Source of the DNA: Candidatus Bathyarchaeia archaeon
GTDB lineage: Archaea > Thermoproteota > Bathyarchaeia > Bathyarchaeales > Bathycorpusculaceae
Assembly: GCA_038883775.1 (NCBI GenBank)
Contig: JAVZLM010000004.1
Coordinates: 64,001-128,000 of the forward strand
Direction: 5' to 3'
Length of the DNA: 64,000 bases
Shown here: piece by piece, positions 33,507 to 57,168 of the stretch
Layout: every line of letters starts with the position of its first letter
Numbering within the stretch: the stretch's first letter is position 1
Notes under the pieces: model-generated
Databases searched by the model: none
What the model saw: the letters and a program-made list of their open reading frames with translations, nothing else
What the model was told of the DNA's origin: nothing
Translations under genes and position numbers: made by a program

Positions 33507-34053
33507 AACACAGGAATATGTTCCAAGCGTTATAAAAGCTGAGGAAATGAATCCAAAATTCAAGTATGAAATTAGCAAGAAGCATGGCGCAGAGAGGCTA
33601 ATGCTTTGCTTCCAGTGTGGAACATGCACTGCTGACTGCCCAATCTCAAGATTCAGCGACTTTTACAGACCGAGAAAAATAGCGAGAATGGTGCAGTTGG
33701 GACTGAAGGATAGGCTTTTGTCAGATGAAGCCCTTTGGTTATGCTCATCATGTTTCACATGCGTTGACCACTGTCCTCAAGGGGTGGAAATTGCTGGCAT
33801 AGTGCGAGTTTTGCGAAACCTTTCGGTGAAAGAAAAAGGTGTCATGCCATTAGTTTACAGAGAACTTGCCTCTAACCTTTTGAAAGGCGGATATGTATAC
33901 GAAATTGTGGAGTCACGCCACAAAAAACGGGCGGAACTTGGGCTTCCACCATTGCCAAAGCCTAATCTTGAAGAAATTGCCAAAATTTTTGAAATTACTG
34001 GTTCTTCGAAAATGCTTGAAAATGTGAAAACTTTCGAGAAGGTGAAAAGCTAA
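33499..34053 (+). CDS. hdrC: Heterodisulfide reductase subunit C (copy 2)
   Basis: CFQCGTCTADCP, LWLCSSCFTCVDHCP. Confidence 0.92.
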   Translation: MSETQEYVPSVIKAEEMNPKFKYEISKKHGAERLMLCFQCGTCTADCPISRFSDFYRPRKIARMVQLGLKDRLLSDEALWLCSSCFTCVDHCPQGVEIAGIVRVLRNLSVKEKGVMPLVYRELASNLLKGGYVYEIVESRHKKRAELGLPPLPKPNLEEIAKIFEITGSSKMLENVKTFEKVKS

Positions 34054-34941: not shown

Positions 34942-34942
34942 A

Positions 34943-35926
34943 ATGGCCAAAGAAAAATTAAAATTTGCCTTCTATTGGGCTGCGAGCTGTGGAGGCTGCG
35001 AAATTGCCGTTTTAGACATAAATGAGAAAATTTTGGATGTTTTACAATTAGCTGACATAGTTTTCTGGCCTGTTGCTATGGACATAAAATATAAGGATGT
35101 CGAAAATATGCCCGATAAATACATAGACGTTTGTTTCTTTAATGGCGGAATCCGCAACAGTGAACAAGAACACATGGCTAAACTTTTGAGGCAAAAGTCA
35201 AAAATACTCATTGCTTACGGTGCGTGCGCCCACCTCGGCGGAGTACCAGGCTTAGCAAATATTTCCAACAAAAAGGAAATTTTTGAAAAAGTTTATGGCA
35301 CAACATTTTCCACTGTAAACCCGGAAAAAATAACGCCAAAACCGAAAGTAAAGGTGAAAGAGGGCGAGCTTGAAATTCCAGAATTTTATGACACTGTTAG
35401 AACTTTAGACCAAACAGTGGATGTGGACTATTATGTTCCAGGCTGTCCACCAGCCGTTGAGCGTACATTATATGCTGTGGAAGTAATCGCCAAAGGCGAA
35501 TTGCCACCAAAGGGTTCTGTACTTGCCCCATTAAAATCCGTATGTGATGAATGTCCCAGAAAGAAGGAGAACAAGAAAATCTCCAAAATATACCGAGTTT
35601 ATGAAAAGGCGCCTGAACCAGAAAGATGCTTGCTTGAGCAAGGCATTATTTGCATGGGTCCAGCAACCCGTGGCGGATGCGGCGCCAGATGCTTAAAGGC
35701 GGATATGCCATGCACTGGATGTGGTGGACCTTGCCCCAACTCTCCTGAACAAGGAGCAGCCATGATAAGCGCATTAGCTTCAATACTTGGTTTAGAAGAG
35801 GAAAAAGAAAAGTATACCGAGGAAGAGGTTGAGAAGCTAATAAGCCAAGTCAAAGACCCTCTCGGAACATTTTACATGTACGCCTTACCAGCCTCGATTC
35901 TTAGGAGGAAGGTGATGAAGGAATGA
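34943..35926 (+). CDS. mvhG: [NiFe]-hydrogenase group 3c small subunit (copy 2)
   Basis: Close paralog of 18248-19186 with the same Cys motifs. Confidence 0.9.
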   Translation: MAKEKLKFAFYWAASCGGCEIAVLDINEKILDVLQLADIVFWPVAMDIKYKDVENMPDKYIDVCFFNGGIRNSEQEHMAKLLRQKSKILIAYGACAHLGGVPGLANISNKKEIFEKVYGTTFSTVNPEKITPKPKVKVKEGELEIPEFYDTVRTLDQTVDVDYYVPGCPPAVERTLYAVEVIAKGELPPKGSVLAPLKSVCDECPRKKENKKISKIYRVYEKAPEPERCLLEQGIICMGPATRGGCGARCLKADMPCTGCGGPCPNSPEQGAAMISALASILGLEEEKEKYTEEEVEKLISQVKDPLGTFYMYALPASILRRKVMKE

Positions 35927-37377
35927 AGAACATAATTATTGACCCAATAACGAGACTTGAAGGTCACGGAAAAATCTCCATATTCTTGAATGATGATGGA
36001 GAAGTTGAAAACGCTTACCTGCAAATTCCAGAGCTTAGGGGCTTCGAAAGATTCTGTATTGGAAGAAAAGCCGAGGACATGCCCCTTTTGACTAGCAGAA
36101 TATGTGGTGTCTGTCCAGTTGCCCACCACATGGCTGGAACAAAAGCCTTAGACGCCGCCTTCAATGTGGAACCGCCATCTGCAGCGAAAAAACTCAGAGA
36201 ACTCATGTACTGCGGCTATTACATTTACGACCATACACTGCACTTCTACTATCTTGGCGGTCCAGATTTTGTGGTTGGTCCGGATGCTCCGCCTGAAAAG
36301 AGGAATATCATTGGCGTCATTGAAAAGGCTGGGTTAGACGTCGGCAAAGAAGTTATAAAGCATAGGGCTTATGGGCAGAGAATAACAGAAATAATTGGTG
36401 GAAAGGCAACGCATCCCGTTTGTGGAATTCCGGGCGGAATTTCTAAGCCATTAAGTGAAGAGGATAGGCAAGAAATTGAGAAAATGGCTTCTTCAGCCGT
36501 AAATTTTGCAAAGTTTTCGCTGAAACTTTTCCATGACATTGTTCTTGGAAACAGTAAATATGTTGATTTGATTAAGAGCGATGCTTATACGTTGAAGACT
36601 TATTATATGGGTTTGGTTGATGAAAACAACAAAGTGAACTTTTACGATGGCAAAATTAGAGTAGTAGACCCAAACGGCAAGGAATTCGTGAAATTCGAAG
36701 CAAAAAACTATCTTGACCACATTGCTGAACATGTGGAAGAATGGACCTACGTCAAATTCCCATACCTAAAGAAAATTGGCTGGAAAGGCTTCGTGGATGG
36801 CCCACAGAGCGGAGCATACCGTGTTGGACCCCTCGGAAGGCTTAACGCTTCAGACGGTATGGCTACACCCTCTGCACAAGAAGAATACGAGTTTATGTAT
36901 AAAACCCTTGGCGGAAAACCAGTACACTCAACACTTGCTTACCATTGGGCTAGACTTATTGAATTGCTTTATGCTGCTGAAAGAGCCTTGGAATTAAGCA
37001 AAGACCCAGAAATAACAAGCAAGGATGTGCGCAACAAGCCAGGCGAACCCGGCGAGGGCATAGGGGTTGTTGAAGCAGCTAGGGGAACTCTAATTCATCA
37101 TTATGTTTTGGATGGGAATGCACTGATAAAAGATGTGAACTTGATAGTGGCAACTGTCAATAATAGTCCATCAATAAACATGTCCATTCGGAATGCTGCT
37201 AAAGGCTTAATCCACGGCGATAAAGTTGACCAGGGAATACTCAATATGGTGGAAATGGCTTTCAGAGCCTACGACCCATGTTTTGGATGCGCAACACATT
37301 TTGCAGTTGGACAAATGCCATTAACAATTGAAATTTATGATAGTGATAAGAAGCTCTTGAAAACTGTGCATAGATAA
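35923..37377 (+). CDS. mvhA: [NiFe]-hydrogenase group 3c large subunit (copy 2)
   Basis: L1 RICGVCPVAHH, L2 AYDPCFGCATH. Confidence 0.93.
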   Translation: MKNIIIDPITRLEGHGKISIFLNDDGEVENAYLQIPELRGFERFCIGRKAEDMPLLTSRICGVCPVAHHMAGTKALDAAFNVEPPSAAKKLRELMYCGYYIYDHTLHFYYLGGPDFVVGPDAPPEKRNIIGVIEKAGLDVGKEVIKHRAYGQRITEIIGGKATHPVCGIPGGISKPLSEEDRQEIEKMASSAVNFAKFSLKLFHDIVLGNSKYVDLIKSDAYTLKTYYMGLVDENNKVNFYDGKIRVVDPNGKEFVKFEAKNYLDHIAEHVEEWTYVKFPYLKKIGWKGFVDGPQSGAYRVGPLGRLNASDGMATPSAQEEYEFMYKTLGGKPVHSTLAYHWARLIELLYAAERALELSKDPEITSKDVRNKPGEPGEGIGVVEAARGTLIHHYVLDGNALIKDVNLIVATVNNSPSINMSIRNAAKGLIHGDKVDQGILNMVEMAFRAYDPCFGCATHFAVGQMPLTIEIYDSDKKLLKTVHR

Positions 37378-41957: not shown

Positions 41958-43826
41958 TTATTCCTCCGTCTTCTTTGTTTTCTCTTCAACTATGTAGATG
42001 AGGTCTTCCATGCCTAGTCCTTTCAGTTTCTCTATTGTGGGTATGCCTTCCCTGTTCCATCCGCGAGCCATGTAATAATCATCCAATAATAAGTCAAGCT
42101 CTTCTTGGCTTACGTAGGCTCCTTTTGATGGTCCCTCATCCGGAATTGGCTGGTGCATAACCTTATAGGGTAATGTGTCATCCTTTCTGCCTAAGCCTTC
42201 TCTGATGTTGAATAATCTGGCAACATTGTTTATTCTCTCGCCACAGCGCCTTATCTCTTCGGGTGAAGTTTCGAATCCAGTAACCAACGAGTAAAGTTTA
42301 GCCAAGTCTTCCGCTTCTTTATAGTATGTTCCCCTTGAGAATTTGCAAATGATTAAGGAGTCAATAATAGTGTACATGTCCTCCATGTCCTTAACCATTC
42401 TTCCTCTGCCTTTCTCAGCTACTAAGCGGTTGACTTTGCCCTTTACGTCGAAAGCGTAGGCTCCATGTCTATTGTGGTCTGCCCCACGGAAGGAAACGGC
42501 AAAGCCTAAGGCAGCTGTTTTTAAGGCTCTTAGGTCGTAACCTGTAACTTCTACTCCCTTGATGTGTTGAGCTAATTTTTCTGCGCCTTTACCTATTTTC
42601 TCTCCTGCAATTTTTACTCCTTCGGCCAGTATGTCGCCTATTCCTTCCCGTTTTCCTATTTTTTCAATTAGTTTAACTAGGGCTTCGTGATTGCCGAAGC
42701 GTGCTTCTATTCCGTTCATGTCTTTTTCAGTTAATATGCCATTTTCGTAACAATCCATGGCGAAACCAACAATTACGCCGGCGCTTATGGAGTCTATACC
42801 GTAATAGTTGCAGAGTTCGCATCCCTTTATTATAGCGTCAAGGCGATCTACTCCACAATATGGTCCCAATGCCCATAATGGTTCATATTCAACCCGAGAC
42901 ATGGCACCTTTGTATGGTCCTTCTGGAACAACAGCAATGTGTTCACATCGCATGGCGCAAGAGCTGCATCCTATGATTTTGGCAACAAATCTTTCATTTA
43001 GGGTTTCCCCGCTGACTCTTTCTGCTGCTTCAAAGCGTGAATTGTTGTAGTTTCTTGTTGGCATACACGAAAGCGCATTGTGAACCAAAACATTTTCCGG
43101 TGTGCCTAAAGTTCTGTATTTTTGTGTGGCTGGGCCTTTCATTCTTTCATGAAATTCCTTAACAAATTCCATAAATTCATCAGGTTTCGCCACGGTAATG
43201 TCATGAGTTCCGCGAACGGCGATTGCCTTAAGATTTTTTGAACCCATAACTGCACCCAGTCCGCATCTGCCAGCAGCCCTTGTCTTTTCGTTAATTATAC
43301 ATGCTATTCTAACGAGTTTTTCTCCTGCAGGTCCTATAGCTGCAACACGAATGTAATAGTCGCCTAACTCTTCTTTTATGGTGTCTTCTGTTTCGGCTGG
43401 TGATTTACCCCACAAGTGTGAGGCATCTAAAATTTGAACTGAATCATCGTCTATCCAAACGTAAACAGGTTTCTCAGCTTTGCCCTTGAAAATCACCGCG
43501 TCATATCCAGCCCTTTTTAGTTCTGTTCCAAAAGACCCGTGGGACTTTGACTCTCCGACTCCATGGCTTTGAGGCGATTTTGAAACAAAGGCATGTCCGT
43601 TTCCGCCAGTTGGCCAGACTGTTCCTGAGATGGGTCCTGTTGTTAGGATTAATGGGTTTTCTGGGCTGAAGGGGTCTACGCCAGCTTTTGAGTAGTCAAG
43701 CCAGAGGCGCATTCCTAAGCCTATGCCGCCAATATATTTTTTTGCGTAATCTTCATTTAATGGTTCAACATGGGTTTTTCCTGTTGTTAGATCTATGTGG
43801 AGTACTCTTCCAGCATATCCGTACAA
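41958..43826 (-). CDS. aor: Tungsten-type aldehyde:ferredoxin oxidoreductase
   Basis: IGPAGE, RAAGRCGLGAVMGSKNLKAI, CSSCAMRC, EYEP, GIDSIS, DSLIICKF. Confidence 0.9.
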   Translation of the reverse strand: MYGYAGRVLHIDLTTGKTHVEPLNEDYAKKYIGGIGLGMRLWLDYSKAGVDPFSPENPLILTTGPISGTVWPTGGNGHAFVSKSPQSHGVGESKSHGSFGTELKRAGYDAVIFKGKAEKPVYVWIDDDSVQILDASHLWGKSPAETEDTIKEELGDYYIRVAAIGPAGEKLVRIACIINEKTRAAGRCGLGAVMGSKNLKAIAVRGTHDITVAKPDEFMEFVKEFHERMKGPATQKYRTLGTPENVLVHNALSCMPTRNYNNSRFEAAERVSGETLNERFVAKIIGCSSCAMRCEHIAVVPEGPYKGAMSRVEYEPLWALGPYCGVDRLDAIIKGCELCNYYGIDSISAGVIVGFAMDCYENGILTEKDMNGIEARFGNHEALVKLIEKIGKREGIGDILAEGVKIAGEKIGKGAEKLAQHIKGVEVTGYDLRALKTAALGFAVSFRGADHNRHGAYAFDVKGKVNRLVAEKGRGRMVKDMEDMYTIIDSLIICKFSRGTYYKEAEDLAKLYSLVTGFETSPEEIRRCGERINNVARLFNIREGLGRKDDTLPYKVMHQPIPDEGPSKGAYVSQEELDLLLDDYYMARGWNREGIPTIEKLKGLGMEDLIYIVEEKTKKTEE

Positions 43827-43902: not shown

Positions 43903-45468
43903 TTAAACCGCTTCTTTCAAGAGTTCTAATATATCTTTCACCACAATCTTACCTTCTACATCCAAAACCTTCACAGCATCCTCCAACGTTGTCACACAAA
44001 ATGGGCAAGCGGTTGCTATAACTTCAACGCCCAAGGCTAAGGCTTCTTTAAGCCGCTCCACACCGGGTCTCTTTTCTGGAACCGCCTCCTCAGTCCAAAC
44101 TCTTCCAGCACCTCCACCGCAGCAGAAGCTGTTTTGTCTTATCCTTTTCATTTCTACAAGTTCTAAGCTATTTATGGACTGTAGAATTTGTCTGGGGGCA
44201 TCGTAAATGTTGTTTCGTTTTCCAAGGAAGCATGGGTCATGGTATGTCACTTTTTTCTTTATTGTTTTAGTAGGTTTTAGTTTACCCTTGTTTATGGCTT
44301 CAACTAAAAACTCGGTGTAATGTTGAACGTTAAGTCCCGCATCCTTGTAGGGCTGGTCATTTTTGAAACTATTATAGCAGTGGGGCGACAAAACCACAAT
44401 TCTTTCAGCATTAAACTTCTTTAAAAAGTCAATATTATGTACTGCTAGTTCTTCGAAAAGCCCTTTTTCGCCTAATCTGAGGATGTGGTCTCCGCAGCAC
44501 CACTCCTCAGCGCCCAATGTTGCATAGTTAATGTCCATTTTATCCATTAGCGACGCCATAGATTTAGCCATCTCTTGATTTCGCATATCATAAGCAGCGG
44601 AACAACAAACGAAATATAAAATGTCAGCCTTTGCCACTTCTGGAAAAGTTTTAACGTTTAAGCCCTTAGCCCATTCCATTCTTTTGCTTTGATGGGTTCC
44701 CATGGGGTTATGATATTTGATTACGCTTTCCAAAACATCCTTAACGGTTCTGGGTATGACTCCGGATTCTACGAGGAGGCTGCGGTTGTCAACTATGGCA
44801 TTGGAGCAGTTAACCAGTTTTGGACAGAACATTGTGCATGAATTGCATGAGGTGCAAAGCCAAACGTTGTCTGCCATGGGTTTTAACCTTTCATCTAAAC
44901 CTTCATCCCTAGAGTCAGCTATAAAGCGGTAGTTAGCAGTTAATGTTGATGGACCAAGGAATTTTTGGTCGATGGCTGCTGGACAAGCGGAATAACAAAT
45001 GGAACATTTGGTGCAAAGCGTCAAGTCCCAATACTTTTTCAAGTCCAATTGACTTTGCACGAATTCCACAAGCTTGTTAAGCTCCGCCTCGGGCTTTATC
45101 AAAAATTTCTTAATTTTCTTGAAAGTGTCAAAGAAGGGTTCAATGTCAACAATTAAATCTTTTATAACTGGCAGGTTCGATAAAGGCGCCAATTCAAGCG
45201 TGTCAACGCCAAGGTCGAGAACCTGCGTATAACATGCTAGCATTGGTTGCCCATTAACGTTGATTCCGCAGCTTCCACAAATACCCATCCTACAAGAATG
45301 TCTGAAGGAGAGCGTTTCATCAATATTGTCTCTGATGTATTGGAGGGCCTCAAGGATGCTTGTTCCCTTGCGAATGGGGACCTTATATGTGGATACGTAA
45401 TGCTTTTTAGTTTGAGGGTCAAAGCGATTTATCCTAAACTCAACAATTTTCTCCACTTTAGAGCTCAT
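43903..45468 (-). CDS. tfrB: Fumarate reductase/succinate dehydrogenase Fe-S subunit fused to CCG domains (TfrB-like)
   Basis: SCRMGICGSC..LAC [2Fe-2S], CTKCSICYSACP, CTSCNSCTMFCP, then WCCG and YHDPC..CCGGG..ACPFC. Confidence 0.8.
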   Translation of the reverse strand: MSSKVEKIVEFRINRFDPQTKKHYVSTYKVPIRKGTSILEALQYIRDNIDETLSFRHSCRMGICGSCGINVNGQPMLACYTQVLDLGVDTLELAPLSNLPVIKDLIVDIEPFFDTFKKIKKFLIKPEAELNKLVEFVQSQLDLKKYWDLTLCTKCSICYSACPAAIDQKFLGPSTLTANYRFIADSRDEGLDERLKPMADNVWLCTSCNSCTMFCPKLVNCSNAIVDNRSLLVESGVIPRTVKDVLESVIKYHNPMGTHQSKRMEWAKGLNVKTFPEVAKADILYFVCCSAAYDMRNQEMAKSMASLMDKMDINYATLGAEEWCCGDHILRLGEKGLFEELAVHNIDFLKKFNAERIVVLSPHCYNSFKNDQPYKDAGLNVQHYTEFLVEAINKGKLKPTKTIKKKVTYHDPCFLGKRNNIYDAPRQILQSINSLELVEMKRIRQNSFCCGGGAGRVWTEEAVPEKRPGVERLKEALALGVEVIATACPFCVTTLEDAVKVLDVEGKIVVKDILELLKEAV

Positions 45469-45481
45469 ACACGCACCACCT

Positions 45482-47182
45482 CTAATAGGTTCTCGCTGCT
45501 GGCTGCCACTTAGTTATCGTGACAGGAATATACTCCAGCCTTGGTCCTTCCTTCGTATAATACGCCAACGTATGTTTTAACCAGTTTACATCATCACGTT
45601 TTGGATAATCAATTCTCGAGTGAGCTCCTCTGGATTCGATTCTGGCAAGCGCACTTACTATGGTTACTTCTGCAAGTTCCAACATGAAATCAAGCTGCAA
45701 GGCATCCACCAAACCAGTGTTGAATGGTCCACCTTTATCCTGAACCTTTATATGCTTGAACCTCTCCTTAAGGGTTCTTACTTCTTTTAAGGCGCTTTCC
45801 AGTTGGTCGCCTCTTCTGAATATCCAAACCTTCTCGTTCATAATGTGCCGCATCTCATCCCTAATAACTGGAACTCTTTCGCTGCCTTCGCTGCCCAAAA
45901 TTCCATCAAAAACCCTTTTTTCCTCCGCCAAAAGTTTCTCTTGTGATATTTCTTTTAGACTATTTGATAAGGCATGTTTAGCCGCTTCTTCTCCAGCCAC
46001 CGCTCCAAAAACAAGACATTCCGCTGTTGAGTTTGTTCCAAGCCTATTGGCTCCGTGAAGGCTTAGGCATGAGCACTCGCCAGCAGCATACAAGCCAGCA
46101 ATTGGCGTTTCAGTTTTTATATTAGCCCTTATCCCTCCCATGGAATAGTGGGCTGCAGGTCTTATTGGAATGGGCTCTTTAACAGGGTCAACTCCGCCAA
46201 GTTTTATGGCAACTTCCCGAATAAGCGGCAACCTCTCGTTTATTTTTTCCTCACCCAAATGCCTCAAGTCTAAAGCTATATAAGGTCCATAAGGGCCTTC
46301 TAATCCGCGGCCTTCGTTAATTTCTGTTTGTTCAGCCCTTGAAACCACATCTCGGGGAGCCAGCTCCATTTTTTCTGGAGCATAATTTTTCATGAAACGT
46401 TCGCCTTTTGCGTTAATTAGGTATCCGCCTTCGCCTCTGGCTCCCTCAGTTATCAGCGCACCAGATGGAACCAAACCCGTCGGATGGAATTGGACAAATT
46501 CCATATCCATCAATGGAGCTCCAGCACGGTAAGCCATAGCCATTCCATCACCGGTGGTTGTGTAGGAGAATGTTGTAAACTCATATATGCGCTCGTGTCC
46601 TCCAGTTGCGATAACTATGGCTTTAGCTTGAAAGGCATGCATTTCTCCAGTTTTCAGTTCTATGGCTGTTAAGCCAGTTGCTGTATTATTTTCAACTGTT
46701 AGGGATGTGGCGAACCATTCATCATAAAATTTAATGTTACTGTATGAGGTGGCTTTTCCGTAAAGCGTGTGCATTTCATGAAAGCCAGTCATATCAGCTG
46801 CAAAACAAGCTCTAGGATATGTGTGACCTCCAAATGGGCGTTGGTCTATTTTCCCATCTGATGTGCGGCTCCAAGGCAATCCCCAATGTTCTGTTAAAAC
46901 TATTTCTTTAGGCGCTTGTCTTACAAAAAATTCCACAACATCTTGGTCTGCTAAATAATCAGCTCCTTTAATTGTGTCGAAAGCATGTAAGTCATAGGAA
47001 TCCTTTTCTCGCATTACTGCCGCCGTGCCGCCTTGAGCGCAAACAGAATGGGAGCGTAAAGGATGAAGTTTGGATATTACTGCAATGTCAAGCTTATTGC
47101 TTACTTCAGCCGCTGCAATGGAAGCCCTTAGACCAGCCAAGCCAGCTCCAACAATGATTATGTCGTGGGCATAATTCTCCAT
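45482..47182 (-). CDS. tfrA: Fumarate reductase/succinate dehydrogenase flavoprotein (TfrA-like)
   Basis: [50 protein letters not shown]. No membrane-anchor gene adjacent. Confidence 0.88.
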
Positions 47183-47304: not shown

Positions 47305-49227
47305 TTGGGGAGACTTAAAATGGTGCAAAAAGTGCCTAAAATAGAAATTTCGCAGAAATTGAAACTAATGCTTCAGAGGGCTTTGGAAAATCCCGAAAAC
47401 TTCTGGGGCGGAATAGCTGGGGAGTTGCATTGGTTTAAGAGGTGGGATAAGGTTTTCGAATGGAACTATCCAAACTTCACTTGGTTTAAGGGTGGAATAA
47501 CAAATCTCTCTTACAACTGCACAGAACATCATGTAGAAAATGGAAGGGGTAATCGTACTGCAATAGTATGGGAGAACGGTGAAGGATTACCTTCCCGCAA
47601 ACTAACCTACCAGCAACTTCTGGACGAAGTTAAAAAGTTCGCTGCTGGGTTGAAAGCATTAGGAGTTGAAAAAGGCGATAGAGTAACAATATACATGCCG
47701 ATGATTCCAGAAGCAGCAGTCGCCATGTTAGCAACCACAAGAATTGGAGCAATCCACTCAGTCGTCTTTGGAGGCTTCGGCTATGGCGCTTTAGCAGATA
47801 GAATCGCTGATGCAGAGCCAAAAGTTATTGTCACGGCTGATGTTGGTTTCAGACGTGGAGAAACAATTAACTTAAAGACCGTTGTGGACGAAGCTCTGAA
47901 AACTTGTGGAAAAAGTGTGAAAAAGGTCATTGTCTTGAAACGAGGTGAGCATGATCCACCAGTGACCTTGGGAAGGGATATGCTTTGGGAAGAAGTCATC
48001 GAAAAAGGGAAAGACATAAATGCTGAAGCTAAAAAGATGCGAGCAGATGAGTTGGCTTTTATCCTTTACACTTCTGGAACCATGGCTAAGCCTAAAGGCA
48101 CAGTTCAACCCCACGGAAGCTATCAGGTTTACATTTACGCCATGGGCAAGTGGGTTTACGACTTAAATGAGAATGATGTTTGGTGGTCGACCTCTGACAT
48201 AGGTTGGATTGTGGGGCACAGCTATGTTGTTTATGCGCCATTACTTTTTGGCTGCACAACAATAATGTATGAAGGAGTTCCAGACTATCCCACACCAGAC
48301 GTTTGGTGGCAAATAATCGAAAAGAATCATGTTACAAAACTTTGGATATCACCCACAGGCGTACGCACTTTAATGAAATATGGTGATGAATGGCCCAAAA
48401 AACATGATTTAAGCTCCGTCAAACTCGTAGTTTGCGCAGGGGAAGTTCTAAACCCGCCAGCTTGGGAATGGCTTCAAAAGAAAGTCTTTCAGGACAAGGT
48501 TCCAGTCATTGACCACATGTGGCAAACCGAAAGCAGCGGTCCAATGGTTGGCAACCCTTACGGCATTGAGCTACTACCTACAAAACCCGGCTCCGCAACC
48601 ATTCCGCTTCCAGGAATTGACGCCGAAATAGTTGACGAAAACGGAAAACCAGTCCCTCCCGGTGTTGAGGGAATATTTGTATGCAAAAAGCCCTTTCCAG
48701 GTTTGACGCCTACTCTTTGGCGGGATCATGAACGTTATGTAAATGATTACTGGAATAGGATTCCAGGCGTTTATTATACCGGCGACGCAGCAATTAAAGA
48801 TGAGGATGGTTACATCTGGTTTTTGGGAAGGGTGGATGAAGTTATCAAGATTTCAGGGCATAGAATTGGCACAATTGAAATTGAAAGCGCTCTGCTTGGG
48901 CATCCCGCTGTTGCTGAGGCAGCGGTTGTGGGGCGCCCAGATCCTTTAAGAGGCGAAACCGCCTGTGCATTTATTGTTTTAAGGCATGGATATGAGCCGA
49001 ACAGTTTATTAAAGGATGCTTTGCGAAAGTTGGTTAAGGAAACTTTGGGACCAATAGTAATTGTTAGCGACATATTCTTTGTGGCTAGGCTTCCTAAAAC
49101 AAGAAGTGGTAAGATAATGCGGCGTCTTATTGGAGCATTAATAGCGGGCAAACCTTTAGGAGATTATTCAACGATCGAAGATGAAACAGCTATAGAAGAG
49201 ATTAAAAAAGTCATAAGCCAGCATTAA
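47305..49227 (+). CDS. acs: AMP-forming acetyl/propionyl-CoA synthetase
   Basis: HSVVFGGF, YTSGTMAKPKG, SDIGWIVGHSY, AGE, WQTE, GHRIG, LPKTRSGKIMRR. ATG 47320 is an alternative start. Confidence 0.9.
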   Translation: MGRLKMVQKVPKIEISQKLKLMLQRALENPENFWGGIAGELHWFKRWDKVFEWNYPNFTWFKGGITNLSYNCTEHHVENGRGNRTAIVWENGEGLPSRKLTYQQLLDEVKKFAAGLKALGVEKGDRVTIYMPMIPEAAVAMLATTRIGAIHSVVFGGFGYGALADRIADAEPKVIVTADVGFRRGETINLKTVVDEALKTCGKSVKKVIVLKRGEHDPPVTLGRDMLWEEVIEKGKDINAEAKKMRADELAFILYTSGTMAKPKGTVQPHGSYQVYIYAMGKWVYDLNENDVWWSTSDIGWIVGHSYVVYAPLLFGCTTIMYEGVPDYPTPDVWWQIIEKNHVTKLWISPTGVRTLMKYGDEWPKKHDLSSVKLVVCAGEVLNPPAWEWLQKKVFQDKVPVIDHMWQTESSGPMVGNPYGIELLPTKPGSATIPLPGIDAEIVDENGKPVPPGVEGIFVCKKPFPGLTPTLWRDHERYVNDYWNRIPGVYYTGDAAIKDEDGYIWFLGRVDEVIKISGHRIGTIEIESALLGHPAVAEAAVVGRPDPLRGETACAFIVLRHGYEPNSLLKDALRKLVKETLGPIVIVSDIFFVARLPKTRSGKIMRRLIGALIAGKPLGDYSTIEDETAIEEIKKVISQH

Positions 49228-49303
49228 AATATGCCTCATTTTTGGTAAACGCTTTATAATGTGTTTAACATGACATTTAAAAATCTATGAGAGGTGAAAA
49301 ACG

Positions 49304-49705
49304 ATGTTTATAGGCGTTGACCATGTGGGCGTGGCAGTTAAAAATCTGGACGAGGCTATTAGCATTTACCAAAATGTTTTAGGCTTTGAACTCGAAGGCG
49401 TTCACGTTTTAAGTGAGAGGAAGGTTAAGGTTGCTTTTCTATTTAGCGGCGGCGAAACCAGAATTGAGCTTTTAGAGCCTTTGGGTAGCGATAGCCCAGT
49501 TGCCAAGTTTCTTGATAGTCGAGGTGAAGGCATTCATCACATCGCTGTAAAAGTTGAGAATATTGAGGCTGTTTTGGATGATTTTAAGCGTAAAGGTGTG
49601 GTTTTAGTTGATGAGAAGCCAAGAATTGGAGCTGAAGGCGCAAAAATTGCCTTTGTTCACCCGAAAAGCACAAAGGGAGTGCTTTTGGAGTTAATAATGA
49701 AGTAA
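49304..49705 (+). CDS. mce: Methylmalonyl-CoA epimerase
   Basis: [33 protein letters not shown]; mutase and carboxyltransferase context. Confidence 0.9.
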
Positions 49706-49713
49706 GTGATTGT

Positions 49714-50832
49714 TTGAATCAAACTAAAATTGCCCTTTCCATCCAATTCTTCCACTCCTTTGTCAGCGGCATTCTTGGAGTCGCCATACCCTTAATGATG
49801 AAAGAAAGGAATGTGGATGTTGTCGTTATAGGACTTATCTTCGCGGCTATGCCCTTGATTATGCAGTTTGGGCGAATGTTTTTTGCAACACTTTCAGATT
49901 TTTTGGGCAGAAACCTCTTCTTTATTTCTAACGGGGTTTTAGGCGTAATTTCAAGTCTAATCTACTATGTTGCGCGGACACCACTAGAATTCTTGTTCGG
50001 CAAACTAATGGAGGGAACCAAAGAGGGTTCAATTTGGGCTGTGAACAGGGCTTTTCTTTTAGAGAGAGAAGGGGGTCACTGGAGAATTTTAGTTTACCTA
50101 AGAACGGTAGTTTATGTTGGCTTCGCCCTTGGAAGTCTGCTTACTGGCTTTTTGGTTGCTTGGCTATTTTTTGATGGAACAATGTTGTTATGCGCTCTTC
50201 TTGGAGTTTTTGTATTCTCGTTGGCGCTGTTGCTGCCTAAAGAAAGAAAAGAACAGTTTAGCATGGTGAAGGCTTTGCAGTTTCTAGATTTCAGAAAGAA
50301 AAAGAAAATTTTCAAAATCTTCCTCTTTCTGTTTTTTATAATAGGTCTTTCCTATGGGTTTCGAGGAAGCTTTGTCATACCACTTTTCTTGGACATGTAT
50401 GGTTTCGACACCGAAATAATTGGACTAATTATAGGCTTACAGATCTTGTTTGCTGGCTTTTCTTCATACCTCTTTTCGAAAACCACTAAGTTAAGGCAGA
50501 TGATTCTTCTACAAGGTATTCTCTTTTCCACAGTCTTCTTTTCGCTTGGCTTTTTAAGTTCTATAGTTGCCGGGGTTCTTTTGGTTGTTTATGGCTTTAT
50601 TGAGGGAATGTCAGGCATCGGACAAGAGGGAATTTTGTCCAAAATCTGCGATAAAGAGTCTTATGGAACCGATATTGGCTTGCTAATGTTTGGGTTGCAT
50701 GTTGGCGAAACCATGAGTTTGGCTTTATCAGGCTTTCTTATTGAAAGATGGGGTTTCCTTGCTCCCTTCCTCTTGGCGGCTTCAACATACGCAATTTTCT
50801 ACATACCCTCATACACTATTCTGAAAGAGTGA
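49714..50832 (+). CDS. MFS transporter
   Basis: Many hydrophobic segments; motif-A-like LSDFLGR. Confidence 0.75.
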   Translation: MNQTKIALSIQFFHSFVSGILGVAIPLMMKERNVDVVVIGLIFAAMPLIMQFGRMFFATLSDFLGRNLFFISNGVLGVISSLIYYVARTPLEFLFGKLMEGTKEGSIWAVNRAFLLEREGGHWRILVYLRTVVYVGFALGSLLTGFLVAWLFFDGTMLLCALLGVFVFSLALLLPKERKEQFSMVKALQFLDFRKKKKIFKIFLFLFFIIGLSYGFRGSFVIPLFLDMYGFDTEIIGLIIGLQILFAGFSSYLFSKTTKLRQMILLQGILFSTVFFSLGFLSSIVAGVLLVVYGFIEGMSGIGQEGILSKICDKESYGTDIGLLMFGLHVGETMSLALSGFLIERWGFLAPFLLAASTYAIFYIPSYTILKE

Positions 50833-50835
50833 ACA

Positions 50836-51627
50836 ATGTTGAAAATTGACAAAATTCAAGAAAAGCTTCAAACCAAAAAAATTGGTAAAAAAATACTATA
50901 CTTGCACAAAACTGGCTCCACAAACGACATAGCCAAAAAATTAGCTAATTATGGAGCCTATGAAGGAGCAATTGTTATAGCGGAAACCCAAACCGCCGGA
51001 CGAGGAAGACTTGATAGAAAATGGTTTTCGCCAAAAGGCGGACTATATTTTTCAATTATTCTAAAACCAAAAATAAAAGCAAAAGAATCCATTAAACTCG
51101 TGTTCTTGGCTGGTTTGGCTGTAGCAGAAGTTCTGCATGAAAAATATGGGTTGCATGTGGAAACTAAGTGGCCAAACGATGTTTTAGTGAGGGGACGTAA
51201 GATTTGCGGGATACTAAGTGAAATGAAGACAAGAGGCGAAAAGGTGGACTATGCAGTAATAGGCTTAGGTATAAATGCAAACGTTGATGTTAAAAAAGAG
51301 TTTCCGGAAGAGCTGAAAACTGTTGCAACATCCATTGAAAATGAGTTAGGTAGAAAAGTTAAGCTGGAAGAACTGCTTAAAGTGTTGCTTGAGAAATTGG
51401 AAAATGTTTATGAACAGTTTACAAAGGAAGGATTCGCTCCAGTTTTGAGGAGATGGAAAGGATATGCGAGTTTTCTTGGCAAAAATGTGGAAGTCATAAA
51501 TGATGTTGGAAAGATGTATGGTTTAGCCTTAGATGTTGACAATGATGGAACATTGCTCGTTAGGCTTGAAGATGGAAGAGTAGAGCATGTGTTTGTTGGG
51601 GACGTTTCTCTGCAGATAAATAAATGA
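50836..51627 (+). CDS. birA: Biotin-protein ligase (no HTH domain)
   Basis: STND, QTAGRGRLDRKW, KWPND, KICGIL, GLGINAN. Confidence 0.93.
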   Translation: MLKIDKIQEKLQTKKIGKKILYLHKTGSTNDIAKKLANYGAYEGAIVIAETQTAGRGRLDRKWFSPKGGLYFSIILKPKIKAKESIKLVFLAGLAVAEVLHEKYGLHVETKWPNDVLVRGRKICGILSEMKTRGEKVDYAVIGLGINANVDVKKEFPEELKTVATSIENELGRKVKLEELLKVLLEKLENVYEQFTKEGFAPVLRRWKGYASFLGKNVEVINDVGKMYGLALDVDNDGTLLVRLEDGRVEHVFVGDVSLQINK

Positions 51628-51753
51628 ATCTTTCGTAACTTTCGTTTTCATGGATTTAAATCCTTAATTAAGCCAGAACCTAACCGTATCTTTAGCCTTT
51701 CCGTATATTCTAAATATTTGAGCTACATTACCTAAAAGCAAGAGGGATTTGAA

Positions 51754-53322
51754 ATGGCTTTGGCGAAAGAGCCTAGTGTTGAGGAAAAGATTAACCGTTT
51801 AAGGGAATTGAATGAGCAAGCTAAACTTGGCGGTGGACAAAAGCGCATTGAAGAGCAACATGCTAAAGGTAAGTTAACAGCCAGAGAACGTATTGAATTG
51901 TTGCTTGATCCTGGCAGTTTCAATGAGCTTGACCGTTTTGTGGTTCATCAATGCACAGAATTTGGCATGGCGGAACGCAAATATCTCGGCGACGGCGTTG
52001 TAACTGGCTACGGCACAATTGACGGCAGACTTGTCTACATTTTCAGTCAAGACTTCACTGTTTTTGGTGGTTCCTTGGGTGAAATGTTTGCAAAAAAAGT
52101 TTGTAAAATAATGGATTTAGCCATAAAAGCTGGAGCGCCAGTCATAGGCTTAAATGACAGCGGTGGTGCACGCATACAAGAGGGCGTGGCAAGCCTTGCT
52201 GGTTACGGAGATATTTTCTTCCGCAACGTCATAAGCTCAGGTGTAATTCCACAGATAAGCGCTATAATGGGTCCATGCGCTGGCGGAGCCGTCTATTCGC
52301 CCGCACTAACAGACTTCATAATTATGGTTGACAAGACAAGTCACATGTTTATCACTGGTCCAGATGTGGTTAAAGCTGCTTTGGGGCAGGAGGTTACGTT
52401 TGAAGAGTTGGGCGGCGCCATGGTGCATAGCACAACCAGCGGTGTAGCCCATTTTATAGCCCAAAGCGAAGAGCATTGTATGCAGATTATTAAGAAACTT
52501 TTGAGCTATTTGCCAAGCAATTATCTTGAAGACCCGCCAGCAGTAGAGCCCACAGATGACCCAGACCGTACCGATGAGGATTTGGCGAGAATTCTTCCAG
52601 ATGACCCGGACAAGCCTTATGATGTTAAGGAGGTTATTACTCGTGTGGTTGATAATGGCGAATTCTTTGAGATTCAGCCCCTTTGGGCGCAGAACATTGT
52701 TATTGGTTTTGCAAGGTTGAATGGCAAAACAGTAGGCATAGTGGCTAACCAACCGTTGCATTATGCTGGAGCCCTAGACATAAACAGCAGCATGAAAGCG
52801 GGACGCTTCATACGCTTCTGCGACTGCTTCAACATCCCAATAATAACATTCGTAGACGTGCCAGGATTCTTGCCAGGTCTTGAACAGGAACACGGCGGAA
52901 TAATAAGGCATGGCTCAAAACTTTTATACGCTTATTGCGAAGCTACTGTGCCAAAAATCACCACTATACTGCGCAAAGCTTATGGTGGAGCATATGACGT
53001 TATGGGCTCCAAACATTCAGGGGCAGACATAAACTATGCTTGGCCAACAGCCGAAATAGCCGTTATGGGACCTCAAGGCGCCATAAACATAATTTTCCGA
53101 AAGGAAATAACTGAGGCTGAAAACCCAGAGCAAAAACGGATGGAACTTGTAAGCGAATATCGCCAAAAATTTGCAAATCCATATGTGGCAGCCCAGAAGG
53201 GCTATATAGATGAGGTGATTGAACCAGCAGAAACAAGACCAAAACTCATCAGTGCATTAGAAAGCCTAATCATGAAAAGAGAGCCTAGACCATCCAGAAA
53301 ACATGGAAATATACCATTATAG
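51754..53322 (+). CDS. pccB: Acyl-CoA carboxyltransferase (PccB/MmdA/transcarboxylase 12S-like)
   Basis: [60 protein letters not shown]. Confidence 0.92.
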
Positions 53323-53382
53323 ATTAATAGTAGCTCAGCCATTCTTTCAAACTCTAAAAATACTAGAGGGGCTAGGCAATTT

Positions 53383-54924
53383 ATGGCTTCGAAACCAGTT
53401 AAAATCACCGACACCACATTTAGAGACGCTCATCAGTCGCTTATGGCTACAAGGATGCGCACTGATGCCATGCTTCCCATAGCTGAAAAAATTGACAAAG
53501 TTGGCTTTTTCTCTTTGGAAATGTGGGGAGGAGCCACATTCGACGTTTGCATACGCTATTTAGGCGAAGACCCGTGGGAAAGAATACGCCAACTAAAACG
53601 CCACATAAAAAGAACCCCGCTTCAAATGCTGTTGCGGGGACAAAACATAGTTGGCTATCGCAATTATCCAGATGATGTTCTCATAAAATTTGTTGAGAAG
53701 GCGGCTGAAAATGGCATAGACATATTTCGAGTTTTTGACGCCTTAAACGACGTAAGAAACATGGAAGTGGCCATAAAAACCGTTAAAAAAATGGGCAAAC
53801 ACGCTCAAGGAACTATTTGCTACACTATAAGCCCAGTTCACACAATCCAATATTATGTTAAAGTTGCAAAAAAATTGACAGAACTCGATTGTGATTCTAT
53901 ATGCATAAAGGACATGGCTGGAATGCTTGCGCCTCAGCCAGCCTATGAGCTTATAACTGCCCTAAAAAAGGAGATAAGCCTACCCATACATTTGCACAGT
54001 CACAGCACAAGCGGCATGGTTATGATGACATACCTCCGAGCATGCGAAGCTGGAGTAGACATAATAGACGCAGCCTTTTCACCTTTCGCATGGGGTACAT
54101 CACAACCGCCAGTAGAATCCATCGTAGCTGCTTTAAAGGGAACCCCGTACGACCCGGGACTTGACTTGGAATTTTTAAGCGAGATTGCAGATTACTTCCG
54201 AGAGTTACGAGAAAAATATTATGACCCTTTAAAGTTAATAGATCAAAAAGCTGAACGGGTTGACACGTCCATCATTGTGCATCAGATTCCGGGCGGAATG
54301 TTCTCCAACCTTCTCGAACAATTAAGGGAACAAAAAGCGCTTGACAGGTTAAAGGAGGTTCTTGAAGAAGTTCCGAGGGTTAGAAAAGAGTTGGGTTATC
54401 CTCCTTTAGTAACGCCTACAAGTCAGCTTGTGGGTATACAAGCCGTTTTTAACGTTATTTCTGGTAAACGCTACAGCATAGTGCCAAAAGAGATAAAGGA
54501 TTATGTGAAGGGCTTATATGGAAGACCGCCAGCCCCCATAGACCCTAAAGTGAAAAAGAAGATAATAGGCGATGAAGAACCCATAACTTGTCGTCCAGCT
54601 GACCTTTTAGAAAGTGCCCTTGACAAAATTCCTGAAGAAGTAAAACCCTACATCGAAAGTGAAGAAGACAAGATAACTTATGCGCTTTTTCCCCAAGTAG
54701 CCCTAGAATTCTTTAAAAAGAGAAAAGCAAAAAAGGAAGAAGCCAAAGCTGAAATTCCAACAGAAAGAATCACAGAGCTGGAGGACGTTGCCGCAGTCTC
54801 TGTGGCTGTTGTTACCTACATTAAAAGTTTGGGAAAAGCCAAAGCATTAATACCCGTGCGACCAAAGGGAATAACATCTGCTTGGGTTTTAGCTGGACGA
54901 AAAAGCTTCGAACTTGGTGTTTAA
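53383..54924 (+). CDS. Pyruvate/oxaloacetate carboxyltransferase (PycB/OadA/transcarboxylase 5S-like), no biotinyl domain, with a delta/epsilon-like tail
   Basis: RDAHQSL, EMWGGATFD, IKDMAG, HLHSH, QIPGGM, LVTPTSQ; tail ELEDVAAVSVAVVTY...SAWVLAGR. Confidence 0.88.
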   Translation: MASKPVKITDTTFRDAHQSLMATRMRTDAMLPIAEKIDKVGFFSLEMWGGATFDVCIRYLGEDPWERIRQLKRHIKRTPLQMLLRGQNIVGYRNYPDDVLIKFVEKAAENGIDIFRVFDALNDVRNMEVAIKTVKKMGKHAQGTICYTISPVHTIQYYVKVAKKLTELDCDSICIKDMAGMLAPQPAYELITALKKEISLPIHLHSHSTSGMVMMTYLRACEAGVDIIDAAFSPFAWGTSQPPVESIVAALKGTPYDPGLDLEFLSEIADYFRELREKYYDPLKLIDQKAERVDTSIIVHQIPGGMFSNLLEQLREQKALDRLKEVLEEVPRVRKELGYPPLVTPTSQLVGIQAVFNVISGKRYSIVPKEIKDYVKGLYGRPPAPIDPKVKKKIIGDEEPITCRPADLLESALDKIPEEVKPYIESEEDKITYALFPQVALEFFKKRKAKKEEAKAEIPTERITELEDVAAVSVAVVTYIKSLGKAKALIPVRPKGITSAWVLAGRKSFELGV

Positions 54925-54925
54925 A

Positions 54926-55480
54926 ATGCCAATTTACGAAGTCCTCATTGACGGCAAACCGAGAAAAATCGAGTTGACAAAGACTGGAGAGAACACTTTT
55001 TCAGTTATACTGGATGGAAAGCCTTTAAAGGTGGAGTTACCAGCTGAAAAGCTTACATTAGAAAAGGTTTTTTCAATAAAAATTGATGACAAAACATATC
55101 AAGTAAATTTGCCCGAACTAAAAAGGGAAGAGCCTTTTTCGGTCAAAGTTGAAGAGGCAGTTTTTAAGGCTGAAGTCAAAGCACCAACAAGAAAACCCAT
55201 ACCGACAACTTTTGAACCCACCACAGTAACGCCTACAATAAGACCGGTAGAAACAAAGCCAGCAGTGGAAGGAACTGTGACTGCGCCCATGACTGGAAAA
55301 ATTCTTTCAATAAAAGTCAAGAAAGGCGAACAAGTGAAAGCCGGTCAGGTTCTCTGCATTCTTGAAGCAATGAAAATGGAAAACGAGATTGCAGCCCCAA
55401 AAAGCGGAACCATTCAAGAAATACTCGTTTCTGAGGGTTCTTCAGTCAACGAAGGAGAAGCCCTCTTCATTATCGTTTAG
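54926..55480 (+). CDS. Biotin carboxyl carrier protein (1.3S/MmdC-like)
   Basis: [16 protein letters not shown], Pro/Thr-rich linker. ATG 54926. Confidence 0.92.
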
Positions 55481-57168
55481 AAAATGGAAGGTGGTTTATA
55501 CTCGCCGAAAACTTCCCGCAGAGTGTCGCAAATTTCTCCTATGGTTGCGTATTCTTTCACTGCTTGAATCATTAAGGGCATCAGATTCACATCTTCTTTC
55601 TCAGCAGCTAAGCGCAATTTATCCAAGGCTTCTTTAACTTTCGCCTGGTTTCTTTGCCGTTTTATTTGTTTTAAGCGTTCCACAAGCGTCTTTTCTATTT
55701 CTGGGTCTATCTGCAAAATTTTTATCGGCGTTTCCTCCTGCGTCACAAAATCGTTTACGCCAACAATTATGCGCTTCTTTGTTTCCACCTCTCTTTGGAA
55801 GCGATAAGCACTTTCCACGATTTCTCTTTGCATAAACCCTTTCTCGATGGCGGCAACAGCCCCTCCCATTTCATCAATTTTTTCAATGTATTTTGCCGCG
55901 CGTTCTTCTATCTCATTTGTCAAGTACTCCACATAATATGAGCCTGCAAGGGGGTCTATGGTTTCGGCTACTCCGCTTTCATAAGCTATTATCTGCTGGG
56001 TCCTAAGCGCAACCGTAACGGCTTGCTCGCTTGGCAAGGCATAAGCTTCATCAAAAGAGTTTGTATGCAAAGACTGGGTTCCACCCAAAACTGCAGCCAA
56101 AGCTTGAATGGCAACTCTGATAATGTTATTGTAAGGTTGCTGCGCCGTTAAGGCAACACCAGAAGTTTGTGTGTGAAAACGCAACATCCAAGATGCAGGG
56201 TTTTTGGCTTTGAAATGTTCTCGCATTATTTTAGCCCACAGCCTTCTGGCAGCTCTAAATTTGGCTATTTCTTCGAAGAAGTTGTTGTGGGCTGCGAAAA
56301 AGAAGGATAATCTTCCCGCGAACCTATCCAAATCTAAGCCCTTTTCGATGGCTGCTTGCACATAGGCGATGGCGTTTGCCAATGTGAAGGCTACTTCTTG
56401 AACGGCTGTTGCTCCCGCCTCGCGGATGTGGTAACCGCTTATGCTTATAGTATTCCATAGAGGCATGTGTTGAGAGCAATATTCGAATATGTCTGTGACT
56501 AAACGCATTGAGGGTTTAGGTGGAAAAATGTACATGCCCCTAGCTGCATACTCTTTCAAAATATCATTCTGCACTGTTCCCCCAAGCTGGGATGGTTCGG
56601 CGCCTTGTTTTTGTCCAACTGCTATGTACATGGCAAGCAAAACGGTTGCTGGAGCATTAATGGTCATGGAAGTTGTAATTTCTTTTAAGGGAATTCCGTC
56701 GAAGACTATTTCCATATCCATTAAAGTGCTAACGCTTACGCCAGCCCTTCCAACTTCGCCTCGCGCCATGGGGTGGTCGCAGTCATAACCCACTTGTGTT
56801 GGAAAGTCAAAAGCCACGCTTAAGCCTCTTTGACCTTGTTGGAGCAAGTATTTGAAGCGCTGATTAGTTTGTTCAGCCGTTCCAAAACCAGCATACTGCC
56901 TCATAGTCCATAGTCTAGCCCTATACATGGTCGGATAAACGCCACGAGTAAAGGGATATTCTCCAGGAAAACCCAAATCTCCTAAATAGTCAAGTTTTTC
57001 AATGTCAACGGGCGTATAAACCCTACTTACTGGGATTTCTGAACTTGTTAAAAATTCGCCTTTTTCTGGAAGCCTTTCAAGACTTTTAGATACGGTTTCT
57101 TTCTCCCACTTTTCCCTACGTTGTTTAATTTCTTCCATCATTTGCTTGTTAAACATCATTGAAAACAC
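55477..57168 (-). CDS. Methylmalonyl-CoA mutase, substrate-binding (large) subunit
   Basis: [17 protein letters not shown] (Tyr), [12 protein letters not shown] (Arg), [16 protein letters not shown]. No B12-binding domain. Confidence 0.92.

Follow-up and report, generated by a model that had tools for sequence, protein, structure and literature searches.

What do two biotin-dependent carboxyltransferases do in an archaeon in whose genome neither a biotin carboxylase (BC) nor the membrane subunit of a decarboxylase pump is found? This question is raised by a gene cluster at positions 47305-57168 of a 64,000-nucleotide stretch of DNA (hereafter, the window) from a Candidatus Bathyarchaeia archaeon. 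The window is G000:C4:64001-128000, where G000 is the source genome, an assembly of 1.69 Mb in 28 contigs with a completeness of 91% and a contamination of 5%; other G and L numbers denote the other genomes and loci compared. Every genome compared is a metagenome bin, and the relatives are non-independent through their common ancestry. Here, we argue that the cluster probably encodes a biotin-dependent, ATP-independent methylmalonyl-CoA:pyruvate transcarboxylase that consists of three proteins and would descend from PccB- and PycB-type ancestors. The argument builds on gene content, the genome-wide lack of BC and of the pump subunit OadB, synteny, purifying selection and the genes of the surrounding pathway, all of which are read directly from the genomes.

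By definition, a transcarboxylase combines two reversible carboxyltransferases that act on one carrier and lacks both an ATP-dependent carboxylase and a membrane subunit for decarboxylation. In the enzyme that we propose, the PccB-like carboxyltransferase CT12S would take a carboxyl group from (S)-methylmalonyl-CoA or give it to propionyl-CoA, and the PycB-like carboxyltransferase CT5S would give it to pyruvate or take it from oxaloacetate. The biotin carboxyl carrier protein BCCP1, biotinylated by the BirA of the cluster, would shuttle the carboxyl group between the two. The enzyme would thereby close a pathway that connects oxaloacetate, malate, fumarate, succinate, succinyl-CoA, (R)- and then (S)-methylmalonyl-CoA, and propionyl-CoA. 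We infer the reaction itself, the direction of flux and the service of BCCP1 to both carboxyltransferases from the observations set out below.

Results

The families of the window genes were assigned with Pfam and NCBIfam models. Ten genes were confirmed by their frames and by these models at the coordinates proposed in an initial annotation of this DNA, and the gene content described there for 47305-57168 agrees in both coordinates and families. At the center of the cluster lie CT12S (51754-53322, + strand; PF01039, 700 bits), an acyl-CoA carboxyltransferase of the 12S/PccB/MmdA type with propionyl-/methylmalonyl-CoA as the predicted substrate; CT5S (53383-54924, +; HMGL-like and PYC_OADA), a 513-aa pyruvate/oxaloacetate carboxyltransferase of the 5S/PycB/OadA type; and BCCP1 (54926-55480, +; PF00364, 84 bits), a free biotin carboxyl carrier of 184 aa. 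Each is present in one copy in G000. A BirA-type biotin-protein ligase without a repressor domain is encoded at 50836-51627 (+; TIGR00121, 236 bits for a cut-off of 83). The gene order of the cluster is kept in >20 related genomes and is, therefore, not a chance arrangement.

CT5S has no biotinyl domain (PF00364) and ends in a C-terminal tail of 45 aa. We scored proteins with >70% identity as CT5S orthologues in a sample of 40 relatives of the same family and order; 22 of the 40 carry an orthologue and the other 18 lack the whole cluster. In 19 of the 22 the gene is whole, with an open frame of 513-543 aa and no biotinyl domain, and in the remaining three it is cut by a contig end or broken. 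In all same-order orthologues read whose contig runs past CT5S, the biotin carrier has a gene of its own. A frameshifted PycB as the origin of separate CT5S and BCCP1 frames is ruled out, as the split is kept in every readable same-order orthologue and the two proteins together comprise 697 aa, more than the 591 positions of the PycB model. The RDAHQS, KDMAG and HLHSH stretches of CT5S align with those of the solved structures 5ks8, 2nx9 and 1rqb, that is, with the metal- and substrate-binding parts of these proteins. In CT12S, the Asp of a GGAYD stretch aligns with D422 of Streptomyces PccB (1xnv), a residue that presumably favors propionyl-CoA.

BCCP1 starts with a domain of ~100 aa built from 3-4 short repeats, followed by a linker and a biotinyl domain with the motif EAMKM. 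An alignment of 20 orthologues favors the ATG at 54926, one base past the CT5S stop codon, over the TTG at 54914 as its start. BCCP1 is the sole biotin carrier in G000, and exactly one carrier is present in 5/5 BC-less genomes examined; the second Biotin_lipoyl match in each of them lies in a frame of 368-394 aa (368 aa in G000), which we took, without a domain scan, as a lipoyl acyltransferase. The single carrier gene in these five genomes suggests that both carboxyltransferases would share it, and it leaves BirA with no other known client.

The lack of BC and of OadB/MmdB, noted for the cluster in the initial annotation, extends to whole genomes. Searches of G000 (91% complete) and its four congeners (87-93% complete) gave neither Biotin_carb_C (PF02785) nor OadB/OAD_beta (PF03977). 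The matches of CPSase_L_D2 (PF02786) in G000 are to proteins other than BC, the best being a 431-aa generic ATP-grasp_3 protein on contig C25, and a search of G007 (97% complete) with the same model gave no match whatever. Among the 40 sampled relatives, BC is present in 11, all of which carry the cluster, and was found in none of the 18 relatives that lack it; thus, the only apparent role of BC is with these carboxyltransferases. Sampling 200 additional genomes across the class yielded five more cluster-bearing genomes of the same order. Of these, G108 and G214 (100% complete) and G150 (97%) are without BC or OadB, G156 has BC, and in G048 BC is split. In total, 28 same-order genomes have the cluster, with BC intact in 12, frameshifted in one (G048) and not found in 15; the latter include, besides G108, G214 and G150, the genomes G021 (98% complete), G007 and G022 (96%).

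Synteny indicates where BC has been. In G030, G012, G023, L029, L030 and G048, BC lies inside the same cluster and is followed by a gene for a second carrier, BCCP2, which is 31-34% identical to BCCP1. The order in G030 is frdB-frdA, divergent from BC-BCCP2-epimerase-BirA-CT12S-CT5S-BCCP1, which converges on the mutase gene; in G030, L029 and L030, BC and BCCP2 are located between frdA and the epimerase gene. In G000 and G004, an acyl-CoA synthetase gene (acs) occupies the position held by BC-BCCP2 in G030, and in G001 and G002, frdA lies directly beside the epimerase gene and the BC site is empty. The absence of BC is not an assembly gap because the stretch that holds BC and BCCP2 in relatives is contiguous in G000, G004, G001 and G002. 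The CT12S-CT5S-BCCP1 trio stays together in every BC-less genome with a readable contig. In G048 (100% complete), BC (L123:12178-13538, G048:C4) is present as two overlapping frames, the contig end removes the first ~50 codons, and BCCP2 is intact; either an error in sequencing or an ongoing decay of BC would account for the split.

For 23 genomes, CT5S, CT12S and mutase sequences were concatenated to build a maximum-likelihood tree (quick IQ-TREE search, LG+G4), on which we mapped the presence of BC and for which we chose family f6 as the root. Five changes are needed, four of which are forced by well-supported branches. Because the synteny of BC is common to families and the G048 copy is frameshifted, these changes point to loss rather than gain of BC. 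Based on these comparisons, the ancestor in the order probably had a combined propionyl-CoA/pyruvate carboxylase cluster with the gene order BC-BCCP2-epimerase-BirA-CT12S-CT5S-BCCP1, and the transcarboxylase state would have been reached by loss of BC and BCCP2. BC-bearing relatives could still form a two-subunit pyruvate carboxylase.

To place CT5S among its homologues, we built a FastTree phylogeny of 92 CT5S-like proteins, rooted at the midpoint and labeled by gene neighborhood; the Propionibacterium subunits are not among the sequences in our trees. Split CT5S forms encoded next to CT12S form a second clade, separate from that of the order, with members from Anaerolineae, Acidobacteriota, Thorarchaeota and one other bathyarchaeon. 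The 21 BC-adjacent CT5S forms in other lineages all have a fused biotinyl domain. The CT5S tail has a motif that consists of an Ala-rich stretch and then Trp...Arg. This motif is present in 22/23 orthologues of the order and, by gene neighborhood, in 11/14 split forms adjacent to CT12S, in 6/23 split forms without CT12S within 5 kb, in the single form with both BC and CT12S (1/1), and in 0/42 fused or OadB-linked forms. The tail recurs in split CT5S of very distant phyla (L046, L056, L058, L060, L063, L064, L071, L077, L078, L081, L085 and L091), and the combination of a multi-repeat N-terminal carrier domain with a tailed CT5S is also found in CT12S-CT5S-BCCP trios of Anaerolineae, Acidobacteriota, Thorarchaeota and Methanomassiliicoccaceae. 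In OadB-linked carriers there is only one such repeat at the N terminus, and an Ala/Pro-rich linker comes after it. Searched against Pfam, the tail gave no match at E values up to 10, and the N-terminal domain of BCCP1 gave chance-level matches only and no family. In comparisons with solved structures, including the 5S subunit of P. freudenreichii (1rqb), only the first part of the tail aligns (E value of 0.02, low confidence).

Several lines of evidence weigh against a transcarboxylase. First, the subunits are closer in sequence to those of other enzymes. In the phylogeny, the CT5S proteins of the order form a clade with support 100, whose sister group (support 95) consists of the fused PycB proteins encoded beside BC in Methanosarcinales and relatives. 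CT5S scores 575 bits with the NCBIfam 5S model NF008984, for which the cut-off is 827, and instead passes NF006761, the model of the PycB domain (801 bits; cut-off 402), and NF008985, that of OadA (744 bits; cut-off 718); likewise, CT12S scores 877 bits with the mmdA model TIGR01117, below the cut-off of 999. Among solved structures, CT5S matches PycB (5ks8) with 567 bits, OadA (2nx9) with 531 bits and transcarboxylase 5S (1rqb) with 479 bits, and CT12S matches PccB with 762 (1vrg) and 717 bits (1xnv) and transcarboxylase 12S (1on3) with only 624 bits. Second, the 120 closest database proteins are named oxaloacetate decarboxylase alpha, pyruvate carboxylase subunit B or pyruvate/oxaloacetate carboxyltransferase, and none of these 120 best relatives bears the name transcarboxylase. 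Third, the polarity of BC loss rests on common synteny, one frameshifted BC and a chosen outgroup, and the sequences in which the tail motif was counted are those from which it had been defined by eye. Fourth, in BC-less G036 (86% complete), the CT5S gene contains two in-frame TGA codons and is split over two frames (L121:6030-7576, G036:C50), which fits decay rather than retention. Finally, malic enzyme is encoded in 5/5 genomes, which rules out CT5S as the sole link between C3 and C4 acids.

The grouping of CT5S with methanogen PycB and of CT12S with PccB would also suit a pair of ordinary ATP-dependent carboxylases, in which CT12S is the beta subunit of a propionyl-CoA carboxylase (PCC), CT5S and BCCP1 are a split PycB, and BC is unassembled or too divergent to be recognized. 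This is exactly how the genes are arranged in BC-bearing relatives, whose cluster also contains BC and BCCP2; moreover, G000 is only 91% complete and encodes the ATP-grasp protein on C25. However, BC would then have been missed in 5/5 genomes of the genus and in six same-order genomes at 96-100% completeness. Other DNA fills the ancestral BC site, which is assembled, and BCCP2 is gone as well. The C25 protein is excluded as a hidden BC by the lack of Biotin_carb_N and Biotin_carb_C domains and by the lack of a counterpart with a comparable score in the BC-less genomes G001, G007 and G021. We, therefore, regard missed carboxylases as an unlikely explanation of the cluster.

A different possibility is that the carboxyltransferases ceased to cooperate after the loss of BC and that one or both were kept for another reaction or are decaying. 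The broken CT5S of G036 and the 18 of 40 relatives without the whole cluster are in line with such remnants, as are the inserted genes that separate CT12S and CT5S in several relatives. Selection speaks differently. In pairwise Nei-Gojobori comparisons within the BC-less genus (dS of 0.3-1.0 for all genes and 0.3-0.8 for the four biotin-system genes), dN/dS is 0.024-0.035 for CT12S, which is the best conserved gene of the cluster, 0.057-0.078 for CT5S and 0.10-0.16 for BCCP1, so that both carboxyltransferases and the carrier remain in the low range of 0.02-0.16. BirA is also constrained (0.15-0.22), and the mutase encoded in the window has a dN/dS of 0.05-0.07. In addition, the trio remains together in all readable BC-less genomes. 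BCCP2 vanishes with BC while CT12S stays best conserved; thus, the only carrier left for CT12S in BC-less genomes would be BCCP1, whose gene always comes immediately after that of CT5S. Given this constraint, we consider it very unlikely that the carboxyltransferases are remnants.

With respect to a pump, OadB was found in only one of 41 genomes of the family and order sample (G005) and in none of five further same-order genomes; overall, it was not found in 45 of the 46 same-order genomes searched. The OadB of G005 directly follows a second CT5S-like gene with 54% identity (L017, G005:C48:1239-3789) and probably stems from a transfer or from contamination during binning. OadB lies beside CT12S and CT5S in 9/9 genomes with these genes from other orders of Bathyarchaeia; thus, across the class, the carboxyltransferases have three partnerships, i.e., with a pump, with BC or with neither. 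A locus in one of these orders (L124:4492-10322, G045:C1) has the order BCCP-OadB-CT12S-CT5S-BCCP and a CT5S without the tail, and a decarboxylase pump fed by two substrates is conceivable there. The membrane protein in the window cluster is a transporter of the major facilitator superfamily (MFS) without an assigned substrate (49714-50832, +; PF07690). As a membrane partner of the carboxyltransferases it is ruled out, since its gene is reduced to a remnant of 55-75 aa in G001 and G002 and is absent in several relatives. Decarboxylation of oxaloacetate or methylmalonyl-CoA, either with an unrecognized membrane partner or through unproductive loss of CO2 from carboxybiotin, would accord with the name "oxaloacetate decarboxylase subunit alpha" that the NCBI pipeline gives to the orthologues and with the OadB neighbors and the MFS gene just described, but it is highly unlikely given the lack of OadB in G000, its congeners and nearly all same-order genomes searched and the decayed MFS genes, and we know of no Na+ pump that decarboxylates without its beta subunit.

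The proposed transcarboxylase is embedded in genes of the methylmalonyl-CoA pathway. The cluster encodes a methylmalonyl-CoA epimerase (49304-49705, +; TIGR03081, 166 bits; cut-off 115) and, convergent to BCCP1, the large, substrate-binding subunit of a methylmalonyl-CoA mutase (55477-57168, - strand; PF01642, 785 bits). The best solved relative of this mutase is a 2-hydroxyisobutyryl-CoA mutase (4r3u), in which Ile and Gln occupy two positions that we take to decide substrate specificity. The window mutase has at these positions the Tyr in RQYAGF and the Arg in ...RGMYIFPP, which align with those of human methylmalonyl-CoA mutase and support the methylmalonyl-type specificity predicted in the initial annotation. 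A paralogue of the large subunit, 68% identical, is encoded with a B12-binding subunit and MeaB at G000:C3:120845-123923, in which the latter two genes span G000:C3:120845-122234. The paralogous large subunit is encoded a second time on the small contig C27 (G000:C27:6-1931), along with the beginning of a B12-binding subunit; the C27 and C3 (G000:C3:121857-123917) copies are 67.4% and 67.8% identical to the window mutase, respectively, and the C27 copy may represent a variant strain or belong to the 5% contamination. A PLP enzyme of Cys/Met metabolism is encoded divergently from the mutase-B12 subunit-MeaB operon (L109:9016-10200; G000:C3:124015-125199, +). If it were a methionine gamma-lyase, it would feed 2-oxobutyrate and, hence, propionyl-CoA into the pathway.

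The remaining steps that the initial annotation proposed to look for are all encoded. In addition to the B12-binding subunit and MeaB of G000, the alpha and beta subunits of succinyl-CoA synthetase, a class I fumarase and an enzyme of the MDH/LDH family are encoded in 5/5 BC-less genomes. A fumarate reductase/succinate dehydrogenase flavoprotein, FrdA (45482-47182, -; PF00890 and PF02910), is encoded divergently from the cluster, and a TfrB-like FrdB/SdhB iron-sulfur subunit fused to two CCG (HdrB-like) domains lies next to it (43903-45468, -; Pfam Fer2_3, Fer4_8 and CCG). frdA also adjoins the cluster in G001, G002, G004, G030, L028, L030 and G214. The thiol:fumarate reductase label, TfrAB, originally given to this pair is only partly borne out: FrdA passes the general SdhA/FrdA model NF004724 (885 bits; cut-off 826) and FrdB the SdhB/FrdB subfamily model (241 bits; cut-off 228), but both fall short of the Tfr models (TfrA, 500 bits for a cut-off of 718; TfrB, 318 bits for a cut-off of 385). 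Directly downstream of frdB, an aldehyde:ferredoxin oxidoreductase (AFOR_N and AFOR_C) is encoded at 41958-43826 (-).

A hydrogenase/heterodisulfide reductase set is located at 27572-37377 (+), 6.5 kb from the CCG-fused FrdB, and encodes in order an HdrA-like protein of 570 aa, MvhD, an HdrA-like protein of 1022 aa, a second MvhD, HdrC-like, HdrB-like (CCG), MvhG and MvhA proteins. Thus, the Mvh-Hdr genes are present as described initially, but the suggested link to H2 through TfrAB is drawn from the distance of 6.5 kb, and to connect this set with fumarate reduction is a guess.

The first gene of the cluster encodes an AMP-forming acetyl/acyl-CoA synthetase (47305-49227, +). It scores 786 bits with TIGR02188 (acetate--CoA ligase; cut-off 725) and stays under the cut-offs of the PrpE models. 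Within the genus, the gene is present in two of the four genomes in which this end of the cluster is readable (G000 and G004) and is, therefore, not a fixed part of the system. Its inclusion as a member of the pathway has to be qualified accordingly: the gene is there, but it is of the acetyl-CoA-synthetase type and inconstant, and it does not settle the direction of flux. ADP-forming acyl-CoA synthetases are found in 8/8 genomes searched. The one in the window (15311-18106, +; 931 aa; ATP-grasp_5 match at G000:C4:80766-81425) could, judging from its family, turn propionyl-CoA or acetyl-CoA into the acid with a gain of ATP. CoA transferases of the AcetylCoA_hyd_C type were found in 0/8 genomes, a search in which other CoA-transferase families were not included. 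Archaeal phosphoenolpyruvate (PEP) carboxylase was found in 0/5 and bacterial PEP carboxylase in 0/8 genomes, and PEP carboxykinase in G022 only; this scarcity would make CT5S the sole C3-C4 link were it not for the malic enzyme.

The direction of flux is not readable from sequence; formation of propionate and oxidation or assimilation of propionyl-CoA fit equally well. In the first case, pyruvate would be converted via oxaloacetate, succinate, succinyl-CoA and methylmalonyl-CoA to propionyl-CoA, the ATP spent by succinyl-CoA synthetase would be regained by the ADP-forming synthetase, and fumarate reduction would serve as an electron sink. In the reverse case, propionyl-CoA derived from propionate or amino acids would be oxidized or assimilated. 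No RNA sample was listed among those that match the DNA; two sequencing runs labeled as metatranscriptomic are flagged as likely to be DNA, and most of their contigs, with matches of 90-95%, come from relatives. The run labels of matching samples point to hot-spring metagenomes, and the best-matching sample may be the one from which the genome came. One source places a protein that is 93% identical to the window CT5S in 'Candidatus Bathycorpusculaceae'.

Discussion

The core idea of the initial annotation, an archaeal transcarboxylase in a methylmalonyl-CoA pathway, is strengthened by the genomic checks, the repeated loss of BC and the purifying selection on the trio, while the kinship of the subunits, the synthetase and the Tfr/H2 parts are weaker. 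The enzyme of reference is the transcarboxylase of Propionibacterium freudenreichii (12S/5S/1.3S, EC 2.1.3.1; 1on3, 1rqb and 1dcz), in which the carrier joins 5S dimers to a 12S core. Homologues of all three of its subunits are present here, no BC or membrane subunit is found, and the genes are set in the methylmalonyl-CoA pathway. Thus, the proposed likeness to 12S/5S/1.3S holds for family composition but not for closeness in sequence: CT12S and CT5S are nearer to PccB and PycB, and the scores of the three subunits with 12S, 5S and 1.3S are 624, 479 and 57 bits, respectively. The carrier has an N-terminal domain built of repeats, CT5S has a different tail, and the host is an archaeon. The chemistry that we predict is that of the classical enzyme; what appears to differ is the origin, the accessory domains and the visible route through loss of BC. 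On these comparisons, the enzyme of the Bathyarchaeia probably arose separately from the Propionibacterium transcarboxylase.

Other biotin-dependent enzymes each share part of this architecture. In the two-subunit pyruvate carboxylase PycA/PycB (of methanogens and of Methylobacillus, 5ks8), PycB is the protein most similar to the CT5S core, and the CT5S clade is sister to the archaeal PycB clade; here, by contrast, a separate protein bears the biotinyl domain, no PycA (BC) is found in G000 or the genus, and both CT5S and the carrier are extended, by the tail and by the N-terminal domain, respectively. With acyl-CoA/propionyl-CoA carboxylases (BC, BCCP and PccB; 1vrg, 1xnv and 1x0u), the similarity is in CT12S, which reaches 717-762 bits with PccB and has the Asp corresponding to D422, but BC and its carrier BCCP2, which in relatives are kept beside the epimerase, BirA and CT12S genes, are missing. 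The Na+-translocating decarboxylases OadABG and MmdABCD resemble the system in having a split alpha subunit and a separate carrier; they differ in the beta subunit (PF03977), which is not found here, and in the OadB-linked CT5S, which lacks the tail.

A literature search, with subscription journals outside its scope, found no paper on a bathyarchaeal transcarboxylase and no characterized archaeal transcarboxylase, in agreement with the initial annotation. A predicted one, however, has been put forward: Imachi et al. 2020 (PMC7015854) deduce transcarboxylase-type propionate metabolism from genomes of Asgard archaea, on the basis of similar kinds of genes. Among the loci compared here, L056 and L063 of Thorarchaeota likewise combine a long carrier with a split CT5S that bears the tail motif, but they belong to a different archaeal phylum and a different CT5S clade.

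If the proposed transcarboxylase is correct, Bathyarchaeia would possess an ATP-free link between methylmalonyl-CoA and pyruvate, through which propionate would be made or consumed at a lower energy cost, and this would change how the part of Bathyarchaeia in the anaerobic carbon and hydrogen cycles is modeled. With intact, frameshifted and missing BC side by side, the order holds a natural series from a BC-dependent system to the proposed transcarboxylase. The names given to these proteins in public databases are probably misleading for genomes without a pump subunit and BC. More tentatively, transcarboxylases may have arisen more than once, and in this order several times, by loss of BC and a carrier from a cluster in which PCC and pyruvate carboxylase shared BC. 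A tailed, split CT5S together with a multi-repeat carrier may then mark a large, unrecognized family across Archaea and Bacteria that is now labeled oxaloacetate decarboxylase alpha, and Bathyarchaeia would run a Wood-Werkman-type cycle with fumarate reduction as its electron sink or entry point.

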